Source: Alphaproteobacteria bacterium (GTDB taxonomy: Bacteria; Pseudomonadota; Alphaproteobacteria; JABAAW01). Taken from it: 64,000 nucleotides of DNA. The notes under the pieces are model-generated. The model saw only the letters and a list, made by a program, of their open reading frames with translations. It searched no databases and was not told the origin of the DNA. Both the position numbers and the translations under genes were made by a program. Positions within the stretch are counted from its first letter, which is position 1. The number at the start of each line of letters is the position of its first letter. The stretch covers positions 911-64,910 of the forward strand of contig JABAAW010000001.1 of assembly GCA_014238535.1 (NCBI GenBank). The letters run 5' to 3'. Shown piece after piece: positions 5,481-47,449 of this stretch.

Positions 5481-8237
5481 CTAGGATGCTTTTGCCGCTG
5501 TTTCAGAGGTTTTTTCTCTTTCGACGATTATGTTTACTATTTTATTCGGCACGAAAATAATTTTTTTGATGCTCGCCTCACCTAAGTTTCGTTGTACATT
5601 ATCTTGTTGCAAGGCTTTTTTTTCTGCAATCGTCTGCTCGCAATTTGCAGGCAAGCGCATCGCGGCGCGCATTTTCCCGTTTATCTGCACGGCGAGCACG
5701 ACCTCCTGCTCGCTAGCTTTTTCTTCATCGAAACTTGGCCAAGTAGTTTCCGCCAAAGTGTTTTCGCCGTCGATTTTCTGCCACAGTTCTTCGGTTATAT
5801 GCGGAATGAATGGATTGAAAAGACGTAGCAAGCAGGCGAATGCTACCTCGCGCTGTTTTTGCACCTCTGTGCTTGTCGCTATGCTTGTTTTTTGGCAATC
5901 CTCTATATCGTTGCTGAGACTACGCAGTTTAGCGATAGCGCGGTTAAAACGAAGTTGTTCTATGTCTATGGTAATATCGCGAATGGCTTGGTGTGTTGCG
6001 CGCTGCAGCTCATTTGGTGATAGAATTTTAGTCCTTTCGTCGTTTTCCTGAATGCCATCTTTAGACTTATTGCCCTGCGTTTTTTTTTCCTTATTGATAT
6101 CCTCAGCTATGCGCCATAGCCTATGCATAAATTTGGCGGCGCCCTTAATTCCATCCCCGCTCCATTCTAAATCACGCTCTGGTGGCGAGTCCGAAAGCAT
6201 GAACATGCGTGCCGTGTCTGCACCGTAGTTAGTGATGACGCTTTTTGGGTCGACGATATTTTTTTTCGACTTGCTCATTTTTTCACTCCGCCCGCGAATG
6301 ACTTTTGCGCCTGTTATTTTATCGGTGTAAGTATTTTTTTGTGCGCCCCTTCCATGTTTGACTTGGTGCGGGAATAGGAATTTTTTACTTTTTTCATCTT
6401 GGTATGTAGCGTGGCAAACCATACCTTGCGTAAATAACCCCTCGAAGGGTTCGACGATTTCTGTTAGATGCCCGCACTCGACGAGCGCGCGAGTAAAGAA
6501 GCGAGCGTAAAGTAGGTGCAGGATTGCATGCTCGACTCCTCCGATGTACTGGTCGACTGGTAGCCATCGTTGTGCTTGTTTTGCAATGGCTTGCTTTTCG
6601 TTGCGCGGGTCGCAAAAGCGTAGAAAGTACCACGAGGACTCGACGAAGGTATCGAATGTATCGGTGTCGCGTTCAGCCTCACTTTTGCAGCTGGGGCATT
6701 TTGTTTTGCGCCACTCTTTCGCTCTCTCCAGTGGGTTGCCTGGTTTATCAAACGAGACATCTTGTGGCAGTTTTATGGGTAGTGTCTCTCGAGGGGCTGG
6801 TACGACTCCGCATTTTTTGCAATGTATTACGGGTATTGGGCATCCCCAGTATCGCTGTCGCGAGACGCCCCAATCTCGCAAGCGCCATGTTGTTTTTTTC
6901 TCGCCCAGCCCGTTTTCTTGCAATTTTTGGATAGCGCGCGTGATGGCTTTTTCGGTTGTTAGTCCGTCGAGAAACTTTGAGTGTATCATAGTGCCGTCCC
7001 CGACCCACGCGGTGTCGGTTATGGCGAAGGTTGTGCTATCTTTACCTTTCGGTAGAACTACGGGTTTTACATCTAGCTTATACTTGCGTGCGAAATCTAA
7101 GTCGCGTTGGTCGTGTGCGGGGCAGGCGAAGATAGCACCCGTTCCGTATTCCATCAGCACATAGTCGCATACGAATAGAGGTAGGAGCGTGTTTTTATCG
7201 AGCGGATGCTCTAAGCGTATTTTGCTATCGACGCCACTTTTTTCTTTGTCTTCGGCGTTGTTTTGTGCGTTTGCTTTGCTATTTGCCTGTTTGACATATT
7301 CTGCGAGTTCTTCGTTAGTTTCGGCTAGTTTTTCGCATAACGGATGATTAGGCGACATAGCGCAGAAGGTTGCGCCGAAGATAGTGTCTGGTCTTGTCGA
7401 GAAGACCTCTAGAGTTTTTGGTAGCGTTTCTACTTTTTCACTCTGCTGTTTTTTGATATTGAAGCGTATCAGGCATCCTTGCGACTTTCCGATCCAGTTT
7501 CGTTGCATGGTTTTGACTTTTTCAGGCCATTTTTCTAATCCGTCGAGTGCGGCGAGTAGCTGCGGTGCGAATTGTGTAATTCTGAAGAACCACTGTGCGA
7601 GTTTTCTTTTTTCTACTATGGCTCCTGAGCGCCAGCCCTTGCCATCGATGACTTGTTCGTTTGCGAGCACGGAGTTTTCGCTAGGGTCCCAGTTGACCCA
7701 TGCTTTTTTTCGGTAAGCGAGTCCTTTTTCTAACAGATCGAGAAACATGTTTTGTTCGTGTTTGTAGTATTTTGGGTTGCATGTTGCTATCTCTCTTGTC
7801 CAATCGATGTCGAGTCCCATCGATTGCAGCTGCTTTCGCATTGCGTCTATATTATTTTTTGTCCAAGTTTTAGGATGTTCTTGGTGTTCGAGTGCTGCGT
7901 TTTCTGCGGGCAATCCGAAAGCGTCCCATCCCATCGGGTGTAGAACGTCGAAGTTATTTGCGCGATAGAATCGAGCTAGCACGTCGCCGAGGGTGTAATT
8001 TCGCACGTGCCCCATGTGGATGTTTCCGGACGGATATGGAAACATCTCTAGGATGTACTTCTTTTTTCGTTTAGGTTTTTGTTCGCTTTGTTCTACTTCT
8101 GAGGAATGTTTTTGTTGCGCTTGCTCTTTCAGCCATCGTTGCTGCCATTTTTTTTCGATAACTCGGTGTTCGTAGCGTGTGTTACATTCGCCAGCGTTGA
8201 GGTTTTCTTTTAGATTTTTGTTGTTATAGTTTTGCAT
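5481..8237 (-). CDS. leuS: Leucine--tRNA ligase
   Basis: 918 aa; [13 protein letters not shown] (HIGH) and KMSKSKKN (KMSKS) class I synthetase motifs, plus an editing domain. Confidence 0.95.
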
Positions 8238-40150: not shown

Positions 40151-40298
40151 CTTTCCTACCTTTTCGTATTTATATTGAGGATTTTTGACAATAGTAGTTG
40201 TGAAGTCAATAGTGCAAGTGGCGGTTGTTACCTACTGCTGTTATGCGTGGCTTGCTTGTACTTTGGCTATTACGCTTTGTTTATTATACATTGAGTAT

Positions 40299-41270
40299 AT
40301 GGAAGAAGAAGTTATGGAGGCAGGTAATGAATTTGACTACTCTGAAGACAAGAATTTAGTTGATTGGTTTTTGGACGCTCGTTTTGCTGAGCGCAACATA
40401 GCGCAGAACACGATGTCTGCTTACCGCTCGGACTTGCGTGCTCTCGCCGATTTTTTGCACGCGCGCGGTAAATCGCTGAAGAGTGCTGAGCGCGATGATC
40501 TACAAGATTGGTATGGCTACCTGCACGATGTGCGCGAGCTAAAAGCAACGAGTTTGGCGCGTAACCTTGCTACGCTACGGCAGTTTTATCGCTTTGTGGT
40601 AGCTGAGCGGTTATGCCCGCAAGACCCGACTTTACACATGGAGTCGCCTCGATTTTCGCGTCTTCTCCCGCGAGTGCCTAGCGTACAGATGATGCGCTTG
40701 TTAATGGAAGGTATAGAGCATGATGGGAGATCGACGGCTACTAAAGCGAATTCGTTGCGCCTGCGGTTATTGGTTTCGCTATGCTACGGCTCTGGCCTGC
40801 GCGTCTCGGAGCTTGTTAGCCTCGAGCGAGGAGCACTTTCTAGGGAACCTCCTATTGCGAAGATAGTCGGCAAGGGAGACAAGATTCGTTTTGTTCCGTT
40901 GCTACCTAGCACATTTAGCGCATACGATTCTTACTTGAATGTGCGAGAAAAGTTCATTCCGAATTACCTTAAAGGAGTTTCACCGTATATTTTTCCCTCG
41001 ACTTCGCTCAAAGGTCACCTTACGCGTCAGCGTTTCGGTCAGCTGTTGAAGGATGCGGCAACGCGAGTCGGGCTTGATGCGAGCAAACTATCGCCGCACA
41101 AATTACGCCATGCCTTTGCGACACACTTGCTTGCGGGTGGTGCGGATTTACGTGCGATTCAAACGATGCTTGGGCATTCGGATATTTCTACGACCCAGAT
41201 TTACACGCACCTAGTAGACGAGCAGTTACAGAAGTTGGTGCATACGAAGCACCCGCTTGCAGATAAGTAG
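40299..41270 (+). CDS. xerD: Tyrosine recombinase XerD (chromosome dimer resolution)
   Basis: C-terminal HKLRHAFATHLLAGGADLRAIQTMLGHSDISTTQIYTH is near-identical in pattern to canonical XerD. The start is moved to MEEEVME; the track ORF starts at 40185 with an implausible hydrophobic leader. Confidence 0.85.
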   Translation: MEEEVMEAGNEFDYSEDKNLVDWFLDARFAERNIAQNTMSAYRSDLRALADFLHARGKSLKSAERDDLQDWYGYLHDVRELKATSLARNLATLRQFYRFVVAERLCPQDPTLHMESPRFSRLLPRVPSVQMMRLLMEGIEHDGRSTATKANSLRLRLLVSLCYGSGLRVSELVSLERGALSREPPIAKIVGKGDKIRFVPLLPSTFSAYDSYLNVREKFIPNYLKGVSPYIFPSTSLKGHLTRQRFGQLLKDAATRVGLDASKLSPHKLRHAFATHLLAGGADLRAIQTMLGHSDISTTQIYTHLVDEQLQKLVHTKHPLADK

Positions 41271-41291
41271 CAGTATACTCTCGTTTATTTC

Positions 41292-41780
41292 TTATGGTTT
41301 ATCTGCTGTCCTGTTTCTCAAGCAATCTTCTAGCGAACAGATAATCTTACCTGTCATTCTTCGCGAAATAGTGGAGTCAGATTGTGGTTCGCCTTTCATA
41401 GAATTTTTAAAAAAGTTTATTGTTTTTTGCACAATAGGTTGTGGCATTTCGCAAATCTCTTCTGCAGAAGAAACGTTATTTTTGTATAGGGTTTTTAGTT
41501 GAGAAAGATTGAGATAGCTTATGTGCTTTAACTTGTGGTGGCTTGAGGCATTATGGGGAACATAAGGATTTATCTCACCAGGAAGGATTTTTAACTGAGC
41601 TTCTGTAATATGCCATGGGTTACTATTGAAAAAGAAAATAGATTGTGGAACCGATAAAACCAAGAAACAAAATTTATATTTCTCATAAGTTCCACCTCCC
41701 TGTTCTTTAGGTTTTCTTAAATCGGTGTACTTTATTTTGCAAAAATACCCAACTTTTAGATTAAGTGAATCATCTTGCAT
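41292..41780 (-). CDS. Hypothetical 162-aa protein; candidate toxin partner of the upstream Panacea-domain gene (no family recognised with confidence; faint MazF/PemK-like residue pattern)
   Basis: ORF lies 23 bp downstream of the Panacea gene on the same strand, inside a ~33% GC islet. The N-terminal half is K-rich; the hydrophobic core is FCFLVLSVPQSIFFF...WHITEAQ. Confidence 0.45.
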   Translation of the reverse strand: MQDDSLNLKVGYFCKIKYTDLRKPKEQGGGTYEKYKFCFLVLSVPQSIFFFNSNPWHITEAQLKILPGEINPYVPHNASSHHKLKHISYLNLSQLKTLYKNNVSSAEEICEMPQPIVQKTINFFKNSMKGEPQSDSTISRRMTGKIICSLEDCLRNRTADKP

Positions 41781-41803
41781 TAAGATTTAAAAAAAATAAA
41801 ACA

Positions 41804-42370
41804 TCAGCAAACAAAAGCGAGAAACTTGGCGTTTTCTCTAATTTCTTCAAGAATTTCCTGCCTGTGAGGATTGTCATCCTTAACCATATCTTCGTAATTC
41901 ATTTTGTCATCTATATTATTTTTCCAAGCTTTATCATGCGAAATTCTAGATAATTCCGCAAAGCCTTTGCCTTTACAAAAATTTAAAGATTCTTTTAAAA
42001 AGTGGATATCGCTTCCCGACAAATAATCCAACTCTGGCTCTCGAAGAGCTATTATCTTTTTCCTTCTAGCATTAGGGGTAGAGATAGGATCAACTCTGAT
42101 GGACCGTTCTAAATCCTCATAAATATCAGGCTTGATAAAATTTGTTTCTTTCTTTATTAAATTGTAGACACACGAAGGAACAGGCCCATATTCCATAGCC
42201 CGATATTCGTCCCCTATTATAGGACGCCCATGTCTGTTCAGGTGCCATTTGTCAGCAAAATAGCAAATTTTACTTACGCTAAACTGATCAGCGTTTTTCT
42301 TCCTAGTAGCAATCCAAACAAGCACCTCAAGAGCTTTCTTTTGGTCAAAATGTTCGAATGCTTTAACCAT
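41804..42370 (-). CDS. Panacea domain (DUF4065; SocA/GepA-like) antitoxin-type protein
   Basis: N-terminal block SKICYFADKWHLNRHGRPIIGDEYRAMEYGPVPSCVYNLIKK matches the hallmark Panacea core (hydrophobic-K-L-x-K-L-L-Y-F-A-x-x-W, then G-x-P-hydrophobic, then W/A-x-x-G-P-V). 188 aa; first gene of a two-gene AT-rich operon. Confidence 0.6.
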   Translation of the reverse strand: MVKAFEHFDQKKALEVLVWIATRKKNADQFSVSKICYFADKWHLNRHGRPIIGDEYRAMEYGPVPSCVYNLIKKETNFIKPDIYEDLERSIRVDPISTPNARRKKIIALREPELDYLSGSDIHFLKESLNFCKGKGFAELSRISHDKAWKNNIDDKMNYEDMVKDDNPHRQEILEEIRENAKFLAFVC

Positions 42371-42479
42371 TTTGCATACCTATTTGATAATGAGCATTGG
42401 TTATTCTAATTAAAAGATGTAATTGTATCAGCATAGTTTATTTTTGCTTATAATATTTTGTATCTTATTGTATCTTTTT

Positions 42480-43142
42480 TCAGTGCGAAAAGATATCCTG
42501 CTCGCCCCAGCCCGCAAGGTCGAGGCGCACTCGTGTTAGTAGCGATTCGAAACATTCGTCAGCTAGCTTCGAGCGTCCTTCACGCGCGAGTATGGCGTCG
42601 AGCTTCGTTCTAATTTCGTGCAGGTATGCTACATCTAGTGCGGCATAGTGCTTTTGCGCTTCGCTGAGTTTTGCTCGTCCCCAATCGGAGCTCTGCTGCT
42701 TTTTCGACATATCGATGCTTAGGAATTCTCTGCATAAGTCCTTCAACCCGTGAGCACTTGAGTAGCTGCGTGCGATTTTTGATGCGATTTTTGTGCAATA
42801 GACAGGAGAGGTCTTTATCGCCAGAGCCTTTTCTAATACCGCCACATCGAAGCGAGCGTAGTGAAATATTTTTGTACGCGTTTTGTCTTCGAGCAATTTT
42901 TTCAAATGTGGGGCTTCACTCTGCTCGACATCGATTTGTACGAGATGACACTCGCTACCATTACCGTCGGTAAAACTTCGATTTTGCTCGCACAATTGCA
43001 CGAGGCATAATCGATCGCGCGTAAATATTTCTAACCCCGTCGTTTCGGTGTCGACGGCGATATCGCCATTCAGCACTAGGTCTGGCGGCAAATCTTTCTG
43101 GTGCAAGCGCACTCGCTTTACGGCAGGGTTATTGTTAGCCAT
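42480..43142 (-). CDS. rnd: Ribonuclease D-like 3'-5' exonuclease (DEDDy family, short form)
   Basis: Exo I motif DTETTGLE and the Y-x3-D exo III motif (HYAALDVAYL); 220 aa. Confidence 0.75.
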   Translation of the reverse strand: MANNNPAVKRVRLHQKDLPPDLVLNGDIAVDTETTGLEIFTRDRLCLVQLCEQNRSFTDGNGSECHLVQIDVEQSEAPHLKKLLEDKTRTKIFHYARFDVAVLEKALAIKTSPVYCTKIASKIARSYSSAHGLKDLCREFLSIDMSKKQQSSDWGRAKLSEAQKHYAALDVAYLHEIRTKLDAILAREGRSKLADECFESLLTRVRLDLAGWGEQDIFSH

Positions 43143-45934: not shown

Positions 45935-46330
45935 TGGGGCTCAAGGGATGGTGCCGGTTTCTGTTGCCAGGCACCGGCGAGCCCCGCCTAGACCTGTGTA
46001 GGGGTCTAGGGCTTGCGAATTCGCGCCCCGTTAATTTTAAAACCAACAGGGTGCTAGTTCAGATGTTGCTTTTGCTGCGGTTAAGCGGCTTGGGCAACTA
46101 CACGCGCATTATCGTTTGCACGTTATGATTTAGCCCGATAACAGCGGGACTCCACCGAATGCCGAGCGCGCCTTTTATTACGCACGTCGAATCTATTTCG
46201 CCCCCATCGTTTTCTCTGCACGCTACCTGCTATCAAAGAAGGCACTTTCAGAGAAAATGGTGGAGGCGCCGGGTACCGCCCCCGGGTCCGCAACGTCTAT
46301 TATGACGCATCGTTTAGCACTATAGCCAAA
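45935..46330 (-). ncRNA. ssrA: Two-piece (circularly permuted) tmRNA gene ssrA: acceptor piece ~46330-46258, intervening hairpin 46257-46206, coding piece 46205 to ~45935 (3' boundary approximate)
   Basis: All on the minus strand. A T-arm ccggg-ggcggta-cccgg is followed by the 3' acceptor strand cgcctcc, discriminator a and CCA (ending at plus 46258). The coding piece begins gggggcgaaauagauucgacg (the GAUUCGACG tmRNA 5' motif) and pairs as G1-G2-G3:U... with the acceptor strand. The tag ORF gca aac gat aat gcg cgt gta gtt gcc caa gcc gct taa (46119..46081) gives ANDNARVVAQAA-stop. The 52-nt intervening segment forms a 9-bp hairpin (uuuucucug/cagagaaaa), as expected for precursor processing. 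Confidence 0.75.
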
Positions 46331-46340
46331 AGGCAGTTCA

Positions 46341-46369
46341 CTCTAGCACATTTAGCCCCCTCTAACAAC
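46341..46369 (-). promoter_or_regulatory. Putative sigma70-type promoter of ssrA (minus-strand TTGTTA - 17 bp - TAGAGT)
   Basis: Read on the minus strand about 15-40 nt upstream of the predicted acceptor-piece 5' region. This is sequence inspection only. Confidence 0.3.
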
Positions 46370-46477
46370 CGAGCATAGGTAGTAATTTTCTCGCTCATAA
46401 AAAAGGTTGTTTTTTTTATTAAAATATCTATTTTTATAAATTGACTATGAAAGCAACGCAAATTTGGAGGAATTATA

Positions 46478-47449
46478 ATGGCAGACTACAAAGGTACAAC
46501 GGGTAACGATAGACTTGTCGGTACCCATAATAACGATAGCATGTTCGGATACGCAGGCAGAGACAATATACGTGGCCGTAGAGGTGATGATCTGCTTAAT
46601 GGTGGTGAGGGAGACGATACTCTGTATGGAGATCAGGGGCAAGATGTAATCGTAGGCTGGCATGGCAACGATAGGTTATTCGGTGGTGATGGAGGTGATA
46701 GAATTTTCGGCAATGATGGCAACGATACAATGGCAGGCTCGAATGGTAAAGATACCATGTTGGGCGGTAAGGGTGATGACACTATAGAAGGAGGTGCGGA
46801 AGCAGACCATCTAGACGGTGGTCAGGGAAACGATATTCTATCGTACATAAAATCAACCATAGGGGTAGAAGTTGATTTGTCTAATGTCGATAGCGACGGT
46901 TTCGTCTTCACATCTGGAGGGCATGCTAGGGGAGATAGGGCGAGAAACTTCGAAAAAGTACAAGGTTCTAAATTTGATGACAAAATAGCAGGCGATGATG
47001 GTGATAATTCCATATCGGGCTACAAAGGCAACGATATCCTCCATGGTGGTGGTGGAAAAGATAATGTCAGTGGCGGTCCTGGTAACGACAGATTATTGGG
47101 TAGTAAAGGCTACGATAAATTAGAAGGTGGAGATGGTGATGATATCTACGAGTTACCTATTGCTACTTTTGACGGAGCTCTCGTAAGTGATATTAATGGC
47201 AGCAACGAGATATACTTAATATTTGACGATGTTGCTCCTTTTGATAAGGATAGTATTGCCTTTAATAGAAAAGGCGCGGACTTGGTAATTGCTGTTACGG
47301 CAAGGAGAAATGATGGAGGTGGTGATATCTTCAAGGAAGTTACTATATTTAGATATTACGACTTTCTAGAATCTGTTGATTTTTCTATCTACTACAATTC
47401 GCCACACGATGATAGGTTTTTTGAGTATAGCGGCGATTTACCCTCGTAA
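46478..47449 (+). CDS. RTX (hemolysin-type calcium-binding GGxGxD nonapeptide repeat) protein, 323 aa
   Basis: More than 12 tandem nonapeptide repeats (GGEGDDTLYGD, GGDGGDRIFGN, GGKGDDTIEG, GGGGKDNVSG, GGDGDDIYE ...). Preceded by an AT-rich promoter region with AGGA RBS. Gene GC (~43%) is below the flanking ~50%. Confidence 0.75.
   Translation: MADYKGTTGNDRLVGTHNNDSMFGYAGRDNIRGRRGDDLLNGGEGDDTLYGDQGQDVIVGWHGNDRLFGGDGGDRIFGNDGNDTMAGSNGKDTMLGGKGDDTIEGGAEADHLDGGQGNDILSYIKSTIGVEVDLSNVDSDGFVFTSGGHARGDRARNFEKVQGSKFDDKIAGDDGDNSISGYKGNDILHGGGGKDNVSGGPGNDRLLGSKGYDKLEGGDGDDIYELPIATFDGALVSDINGSNEIYLIFDDVAPFDKDSIAFNRKGADLVIAVTARRNDGGGDIFKEVTIFRYYDFLESVDFSIYYNSPHDDRFFEYSGDLPS

Follow-up and report, generated by a model that had tools for sequence, protein, structure and literature searches.

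Between an rnd-like and a xerD-like gene, at positions 41,271 to 42,479 of the stretch of alphaproteobacterial DNA analysed here (64,000 nucleotides of contig JABAAW010000001.1, referred to below as the window), lie two genes that probably form a chromosomal toxin–antitoxin (TA) module of the PanA–PanT type. Both are read from the minus strand. The leading gene, panA (41804..42370), encodes a stand-alone Panacea protein of 188 amino acids (aa), the putative antitoxin; it is followed by a panT-like gene (41292..41780) for a 162-aa putative toxin predicted to form a beta-barrel of the MazF/CcdB type. An earlier note on this DNA, made from the letters alone, had placed two minus-strand genes 23 bp apart between a xerD stop codon at 41270 and an rnd stop codon at 42480, and had described them as an antitoxin-first, tightly spaced two-gene module of the TA type. 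The coordinates bear this out: the Panacea gene leads, and an AT-rich spacer of 23 bp (41781..41803, minus strand) separates it from the toxin gene. The corresponding spacer measures 22–38 bp in all clade lineages and 0 bp at L132, a locus from another lineage that carries a distant homologue of the toxin.

The putative antitoxin gene and signals at the locus

The product of panA matches the Pfam family PF13274 (SocA_Panacea) over residues 34–150 with 74.9 bits against a cutoff of 25.7, in agreement with the earlier assignment as a Panacea (DUF4065) protein, and precomputed matches to the same family are present in all clade orthologues. No helix-turn-helix or other added domain was found in PanA. 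The seven clade orthologues have a mean column identity of 70% and share an invariant YGPVPS motif, which also occurs in L130, L132 and the nearest relatives; GPV, the signature motif of Panacea, is reported to be critical for neutralisation (PMC8832971). Outside the Pfam domain, at approximately residues 151–188, the protein carries a conserved acidic C-terminal tail ([MI]DYE[DL][MF][IV]..DNP.R..I[IL]E), which is common to the nearest PanA relatives and absent from more distant ones. PanA proteins are known from NetFlax work to act in two modes: either a stand-alone Panacea domain neutralises the toxin directly, or short appended elements such as Phd-C are the true neutraliser (PMC10440598). 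By analogy, the acidic tail is a candidate for an appended neutralising element of this kind. A PADLOC match of the tail to ‘Tin’ (14 bits, E = 0.005) was not significant and was set aside. The orthologues also end in hydrophobic residues resembling an ssrA tag (LAFVC in the window; LAFSC in L001 and L002; LLFAA, LLFAS or LLFAT in allelic type B, described below). As a matter of speculation, such ends could act as a degron and render the antitoxin labile to proteases.

The spacer between the stop codon of the rnd-like gene and the start of panA (42371..42479, minus strand) is AT-rich and contains a promoter-like site. Scored purely as a match to a sigma-70-type consensus over 12 positions, this site (CTGATA-17-TAGAAT, 42431 to 42403 on the minus strand) reaches 9/12. 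The equivalent spacers hold TTGACA-17-TATAAT (12/12) in L090, TTGACA-16-TAGAAT (11/12) in L092 and, as read from the alignment, TTGATA-17-TAGAAT in L131. Within the window, the 23-bp spacer contains no obvious Shine–Dalgarno sequence ahead of the toxin ATG. In allelic types B and C, panA is preceded by an AAGAGG-like ribosome-binding site and the toxin gene lacks a clear one. A layout with a ribosome-binding site ahead of panA and none clear for the toxin would favour an excess of antitoxin. No intrinsic terminator was predicted for the module.

The two flanking genes are conserved and lie outside the module, and here the labels of the earlier note hold in part. Immediately upstream on the same strand, the rnd-like gene (42480..43142, minus strand) encodes a 220-aa 3'-5' exonuclease with a DEDD exonuclease domain, but with the RNase D equivalog model this product reaches only 78 of the 299 bits required. 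On the other side, the convergent xerD-like gene (40185..41270, plus strand) encodes a tyrosine recombinase that passes the generic model NF001399 (302 versus 279 bits) but stays below the XerD equivalog cutoff (277 versus 329.6 bits). We retain the names rnd-like and xerD-like; for brevity, rnd and xerD are used where position is meant. Between the stop codons of the toxin gene and the xerD-like gene lie 21 bp (41271..41291), which form the sharp edge of a variable segment; the same gap is 2–21 bp in most lineages and 73 bp in L001. In the longer gap of L001 (4563–4635), a GAACATATCT-like unit is repeated in tandem about four times, and this repeat is missing from the 21-bp gap of the window and from types B and C (2–18 bp).

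The toxin candidate and its predicted fold

Searches with the 162-aa protein returned nothing significant in Pfam, NCBIfam, PADLOC, PHROGs or the PDB sequences; the partner belongs to no described sequence family, and the earlier note likewise could not place it in any. Relatives are very rare. Searching 5.8 billion proteins by word index recovered three clusters; a HMMER scan that covered 1.84 billion representatives exhaustively contributed three genuine relatives and a spurious repeat protein, and a profile search raised the family to 15 clusters, none of which has a Pfam domain or a name. Likewise, none of 16 family members matches any NCBIfam model. P0007, a 632-aa protein built from 11 repeats that are nearly identical and some 50 aa long, matched the helical part only (E = 1.2e-7) and is probably spurious; it resembles a translated tandem DNA repeat. 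Designed helical-repeat proteins, which were the PDB sequence and profile matches of the family, aligned on the C-terminal helices only and were taken as compositional.

A first AlphaFold2 (AF2) model, computed from an alignment of three sequences, had a predicted local distance difference test score (pLDDT) of 42 and was discarded. From an alignment of 14 sequences, AF2 returned a model with a pLDDT of 85.6 and a predicted template modelling (TM) score of 0.79, the five models spanning pLDDT values of 82.7–85.6. The model contains six main beta strands (residues 12–22, 31–43, 46–52, 62–65, 88–91 and 107–111), a helix at 114–129 and an extra C-terminal helix at 140–156, with the barrel comprising approximately residues 10–129. 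On Foldseek comparison with the PDB, the leading matches were MoxT, Staphylococcus aureus MazF, Bacillus cereus MazF, Mycobacterium tuberculosis (Mtb) MazF-mt1, Escherichia coli MazF and MazF-mt9, with probabilities up to 0.99 and target TM-scores of 0.55–0.66. In the comparison with viral predicted structures, the top ranks go to PemK-like proteins and an endoribonuclease. This confident model is thus one of the MazF/Kid/CcdB fold, an SH3-like barrel with a C-terminal helix, and as modelled the toxin represents a sequence family new to the MazF/CcdB fold, with a C-terminal helical extension. The earlier note had proposed an undescribed kind of toxin. That proposal does not survive, because the model has the MazF/Kid/CcdB fold and pairs of PanA with MazF-like toxins are already catalogued: the Panacea antitoxin domain and the MazF fold are known already, and what is new is the toxin sequence family. 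More generally, ‘unknown’ Panacea partners can be old folds, and claims of novel toxins therefore need checks at the level of structure.

For its activity, MazF requires an Arg where beta-2 begins and a Thr beyond beta-3 (Arg25 and Thr48 in Bacillus), and active variants exist with Lys in place of Arg (Mtb MazF4) or Ser in place of Thr (Mtb MazF7) (PMC7354611). Inspection of the 16 toxin-family members identified three invariant residues, Lys36 (in beta-2), Phe49 and Ser88; position 53, just after beta-3, is Ser or Thr in every member. By strand order alone, Lys36 and Ser/Thr53 may take the places of the catalytic Arg and Thr of MazF.

Conservation, composition and allele exchange

The earlier note had proposed a recent islet with presence/absence polymorphism. 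The contigs contradict this: the pair occupies the same rnd/xerD junction in 9/9 distinct related contigs that reach a neighbouring gene, and no empty rnd/xerD site was seen among the clade contigs examined. Six of the loci (L001, L090, L092, L093, L094 and L131) show the full context, (gshB–sspB–)fumarase–rnd–[panA–toxin]–xerD (convergent)–ffh–rpsP and onwards, and the window's own contig and its strain variants (L003–L007) have the same arrangement. The remaining contigs are shorter in their coverage: L091 holds a partial panA, the toxin gene and the full xerD; L130 the full pair and then the tail of xerD; L002 the full pair and then only the last 16 xerD codons; and L089 the toxin gene followed by the same 16 codons only. 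In every lineage, a xerD-like gene adjoins the toxin gene. The flanking proteins of related lineages are 58–82% identical to those of the window, so the arrangement predates a deep split. Beyond the clade, none of the best 80 GTDB loci listed by their rnd-like protein (51–59% identity) share the fumarase/xerD/ffh neighbourhood, a list in which closer relatives were possibly missed, and in JGI metagenomes a scan with xerD gave no match that exceeded 40% identity across more than 170 residues.

Signs of mobility were sought at the locus and in mobile elements. At the locus there are neither flanking direct repeats beyond chance nor a dedicated integrase, and no tRNA gene lies nearby, the sole one being 17 kb away. 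The toxin family had no match in viral contigs, PLSDB plasmids or GenBank phages, by scans and tblastn, and the PanA alignment had none in the viral contigs.

The pairing of the two genes is equally constant. When a hidden Markov model (HMM) of the family was run over the 1.29 Mb of DNA analysed, the toxin partner was found solely next to Panacea genes. On every contig that reaches far enough upstream, a Panacea gene precedes the toxin gene, the distant homologue at L132 included, and the partner lies 0–38 bp downstream of panA at every locus. The nearest PanA outside the clade, P0034 (44% identity), is encoded in a GC-rich alphaproteobacterial metagenome-assembled genome (L132–L134; GCA_027432895.1, GCA_027432595.1), where its gene is flanked by an EamA transporter gene and the his operon. 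Abutting the stop codon of this Panacea gene, with no spacer, is an uncalled open reading frame (ORF) of 119 aa (5547–5906, plus strand; L132, L133 and L134). Its product aligns to the toxin family with an hhalign probability of 96% (E = 3.7e-9, 32% identity over 95 columns) and scores 91 bits against the family HMM, and is thus a clear toxin-family homologue. Because gene callers missed it, the toxin family is under-counted in protein databases. A homologous pair at another locus in another lineage means that the pair travels as a unit.

In base composition the segment stands apart from its surroundings. The GC content of 41271–42479 is 0.339, compared with a mean of 0.489 (s.d. 0.025, minimum 0.416) for the other 1.2-kb windows of the 64 kb (z = −6.1); the drop to about 33% GC reported earlier is therefore real, with a measured value of 33.9%. 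Among the genes of the window, the two module genes also rank lowest in GC content at third codon positions (GC3), with 0.30 and 0.34 where the median is 0.49. The earlier note had counted conservation at this locus across the whole clade, combined with housekeeping-like composition, as evidence against its proposal. The conservation is there, but the composition is not that of housekeeping genes. Moreover, the offset recurs: module and host GC are 0.34 and 0.49 in the window, 0.38 and 0.54 in L090, 0.40 and 0.55 in L092, 0.39 and 0.55 in L131, and 0.52 and 0.67 in L132, so that the module lies about 15 GC points under its host in every lineage and 10–15 points under the host's intergenic DNA. 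Since its GC is below that of intergenic DNA, simple drift to a neutral mutational equilibrium is ruled out as the source of the AT-richness, and since module GC scales with host GC, so is a single AT-rich donor pool. Recent acquisition does not account for the deficit either. Possible causes of the low GC are selection, through silencing or low expression, and import from relatives of somewhat lower GC.

Both genes evolve under purifying selection. The ratio of non-synonymous to synonymous divergence (dN/dS) is 0.13–0.26 for panA and 0.26–0.46 for the toxin gene, compared with 0.02–0.21 for flanking genes, and these values identify panA and the toxin gene as real genes. Between close genomes, the divergence of the module nonetheless greatly exceeds that of its flanks, both at synonymous and at non-synonymous sites. 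For L090 and L093, the flanking proteins are 93–98% identical (synonymous divergence, dS, 0.19–0.27), whereas PanA is 76% (dS 0.65) and the toxin 63% (dS 0.69) identical. Sliding nucleotide identity for this pair is 92–100% over fumarase and rnd, 75–90% over panA and 54–76% over the toxin gene, and is back at 91–97% from the first bases of xerD.

The alleles fall into three types: type A in the window, L001 and L002; type B in L090–L094, L091 included; and type C in L089, L130, L131, P0013 and P0014. Between types, toxins are only 23–35% and PanAs 48–60% identical. Two types meet on one contig, ctg28101_38x_l (1,936,763 bp), which contains the same region of about 14 kb twice, as L092 (73,680–88,150) and L131 (1,902,516–1,917,094), 1,828,836 bp apart and identically oriented. 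Most likely, a circular chromosome of about 1.83 Mb was over-extended by about 108 kb, the two copies being its overlapping ends and representing two strain haplotypes. Nucleotide identity between them is 98–100% in fumarase, rnd, ffh, rpsP, rplS and aconitase, yet the module is of type B in one copy and of type C in the other; along the pair, identity drops from 0.76 to 0.42, and at xerD it is back at 0.96. This is allelic replacement in a near-identical background. The L131 copy also carries an extra gene of 234 aa. Within xerD, an interior segment (L092 7739–8211) is 82–83% identical to L131, and both ends of the gene are 96–100% identical. This mosaic patch suggests that recombination tracts may reach into xerD.

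Elsewhere in the window, a two-piece (permuted) transfer-messenger RNA (tmRNA) gene of the alphaproteobacterial type lies at 45950–46372 on the minus strand (RF01849, 175.5 bits; RF04321, 126.4 bits), which ARAGORN missed; from this gene the host is identified as an alphaproteobacterium. Next to it, an ORF of 323 aa (46478–47449, plus strand) has no Pfam match and was called in L003 at 332–1303. With a GC3 of 0.355, it ranks third lowest among the genes of the window, behind both module genes.

Interpretation and comparison with known systems

Taken together, these results favour, with somewhat better than even confidence, a chromosomal PanA–PanT type II TA module with a MazF-fold toxin, probably an RNase, that is resident at the rnd/xerD junction and diversifies by rapid evolution and allele exchange. 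Under such a scheme, panA and the toxin gene would be transcribed from their own sigma-70-type promoter in the rnd–panA spacer, and PanA would bind the toxin directly and keep it inactive, possibly through its conserved acidic C-terminal tail in the manner of the short appended elements of other PanAs. Loss or triggering of PanA, for example by phage infection or proteolysis, would allow the toxin to halt growth; the likeliest route, judged from the fold, Lys36 and Ser/Thr53, would be MazF-type endoribonuclease action on RNA. The module itself resides permanently at one chromosomal site in a clade of uncultured alphaproteobacteria and diversifies far faster than its flanks, and strains exchange whole alleles by recombination that runs through the conserved neighbouring genes or close to them. 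The pattern fits a function in conflict or immunity, or a selfish addiction module.

Several observations weigh against this interpretation, most of them concerning the toxin. The best Foldseek E-value, 8e-3, is modest. None of the seven family members scanned matches PF02452 (MazF/PemK), even at E ≤ 10, and a PDB profile search with the family found no MazF. Alignment by hhalign to E. coli MazF, Bacillus subtilis EndoA and Kid (sequences validated at 165–169 bits against their PDB entries) gave probabilities of just 0.75–1.3%; the sole stretch aligned was the beta-5/C-helix segment, as the fold predicts. The mapping of the catalytic residues is purely topological, and a forced global hhalign alignment yields another register at low confidence. 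The toxin of the window has Trp57 (FFNSNPWH) at a position where nearly all relatives have Arg (NSKPR), three residues after a conserved [NS][ST] pair; this substitution may indicate an altered or weakened active site in the window allele. Fixation at one site throughout a clade is atypical for accessory TA modules, and the MazF/CcdB fold also serves activities other than RNase, such as the poisoning of gyrase by CcdB. Among catalogued systems, eight PanTs that were tested were not toxic in E. coli (PMC8832971).

The alternative nearest to the one we favour is the same PanA–toxin layout with a MazF/CcdB-fold toxin that is not an RNase and instead acts on DNA gyrase, as CcdB does, or engages another partner through its C-terminal helices. 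We regard this as unlikely, although it is the least unlikely of the alternatives. Somewhat harder to defend is the idea that the pair has been domesticated, is non-toxic and serves in housekeeping or regulation, for instance as an RNA-processing factor and its regulator, kept because it is useful. The constant site in every clade member seen, the deep divergence with no empty site, the purifying selection on both genes and the RNA- and translation-related neighbours (the rnd-like exonuclease, ffh, rpsP, rimM and trmD) would all suit such a role. Housekeeping genes, however, do not diverge 3–10 times faster than their flanks at both classes of site, do not exist as 23–35% identical alleles in 98–100% identical backgrounds and do not stay about 15 GC points under their genome; nor would a homologous pair be expected at an unrelated locus in another lineage.

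Two further explanations have very little left in their favour. In a type VI system like SocAB, the Panacea protein would serve as an adaptor that brings the toxin to ClpXP for degradation, and the toxin, like SocB in Caulobacter, would block replication. In favour of this, the host is an alphaproteobacterium, as its tmRNA indicates, all seven clade PanAs weakly match the NCBIfam SocA model, and the SocB cluster T10 is widespread in Alphaproteobacteria with the order antitoxin–toxin (PMC8832971 Dataset S1). The SocA match, however, amounts to about 30 bits (30.6), where the cutoff is 190, and is confined to residues 23–76, and no toxin-family member matches any NCBIfam model; by these available tests the module is not a SocAB orthologue. 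Furthermore, the predicted toxin fold points to MazF, and other PanAs tested neutralise without ClpXP or Lon (PMC8832971). A ‘QLKILP’ segment considered as a SocB-like beta-clamp-binding motif is a barrel strand in the model and was rejected. We judge a SocAB-like mechanism very improbable, and the odds are equally long for a recently acquired mobile islet with an entirely undescribed toxin, which the data already largely refute. Strong AT-richness, a partner without a sequence family and the great rarity of that family (15 clusters in 5.8 billion proteins) would speak for such an islet; against it stand the fixed site, module divergence that tracks host divergence at the deepest level, the lack at the locus of repeats beyond chance, tRNA and dedicated integrase, the absence of the family from the viral contigs, plasmids and phages searched, a module GC that scales with that of the host rather than reflecting one donor, and the MazF-like toxin fold.

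A more far-reaching version of the resident PanA–PanT module is tentative. The junction may be a clade-wide fixed, ‘idiomorphic’ immunity locus, at which at least three mutually orthogonal classes of PanA and MazF-fold toxin are held under balancing or negative frequency-dependent selection and shuffled by homologous recombination among strains that are clonal in other respects, with AT-richness itself selected and with a new toxin family that uses a Lys/Ser active site. Selective agents could include different phage triggers or strain-versus-strain incompatibility. If so, the locus would be a natural system in which a TA pair diversifies in place, and the Lys/Ser active site and C-terminal helices would give the toxin a distinct target or regulation; functionally orthogonal alleles would amount to a compact natural experiment in TA co-diversification, possibly under phage-driven balancing selection, in small-genome uncultured alphaproteobacteria. 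Independently of this possibility, the PanAT repertoire gains a sequence-orphan toxin family of 15 clusters, with further copies missed by annotation pipelines. A module as old as its clade that is still about 15 GC points low also provides a counter-example to the equation of low GC with recent horizontal acquisition.

Among known systems, the closest likeness is to PanAT pairs with MazF/PemK-type toxins. Kurata et al. (2022) sorted PanA partners into 88 clusters, PemK matches among them; clusters T5 and T6 gave HHpred matches of at least 99% to MazF/EndoA/PemK, and for some MazF-like PanTs toxicity, neutralisation, complex formation and inhibition of translation were demonstrated (PMC8832971). 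Like these pairs (T5, T6; Pseudomonas moraviensis, Bifidobacterium ruminantium), the present module has a Panacea antitoxin first, with a GPV motif, and a small MazF-fold toxin second; their toxins, too, are often invisible to domain databases and recognised by remote-homology or structure methods only. It differs in that its toxin cannot be linked to MazF even by profile–profile comparison, for which the alignments are small, and in that this toxin has one or two extra C-terminal helices (162 aa versus about 110). Further differences are the conserved acidic tail at the C-terminus of PanA and the fixation of the module at one chromosomal site clade-wide, in place of a patchy distribution.

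The classical MazEF, Kid–Kis and PemIK systems are more distant. Their antitoxins are of the AbrB/SpoVT type, like MazE, whereas here the antitoxin is a Panacea domain; the present toxin has no PF02452 match and carries the extra helical extension, and the catalytic Arg and Thr are not demonstrably conserved, Lys36 and Ser/Thr53 being at best their counterparts. SocAB of Caulobacter crescentus shares the alphaproteobacterial host and the order of a Panacea-domain gene followed by a toxin gene. On the SocA equivalog model, however, PanA reaches about 30 rather than 190 bits, and the predicted fold of the present toxin is of the RNase type, whereas SocB is a clamp-binding inhibitor of replication; no likeness to SocB was detected through NCBIfam models.

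At the level of populations, the nearest analogues are the core-genome defence hotspots of Pseudomonas aeruginosa (PMC10250203) and E. coli (PMC10121019). As in these hotspots, a variable segment of low GC lies between the same core genes and differs in content between close strains; in L092 and L131, the flanks are 98–100% and the module 42–76% identical. The cargo of the hotspots consists of unrelated systems or mobile elements, and their sites are often empty. Here, by contrast, with no empty site seen, the cargo always belongs to the same two-gene family, and it is the allele that varies, among three types.

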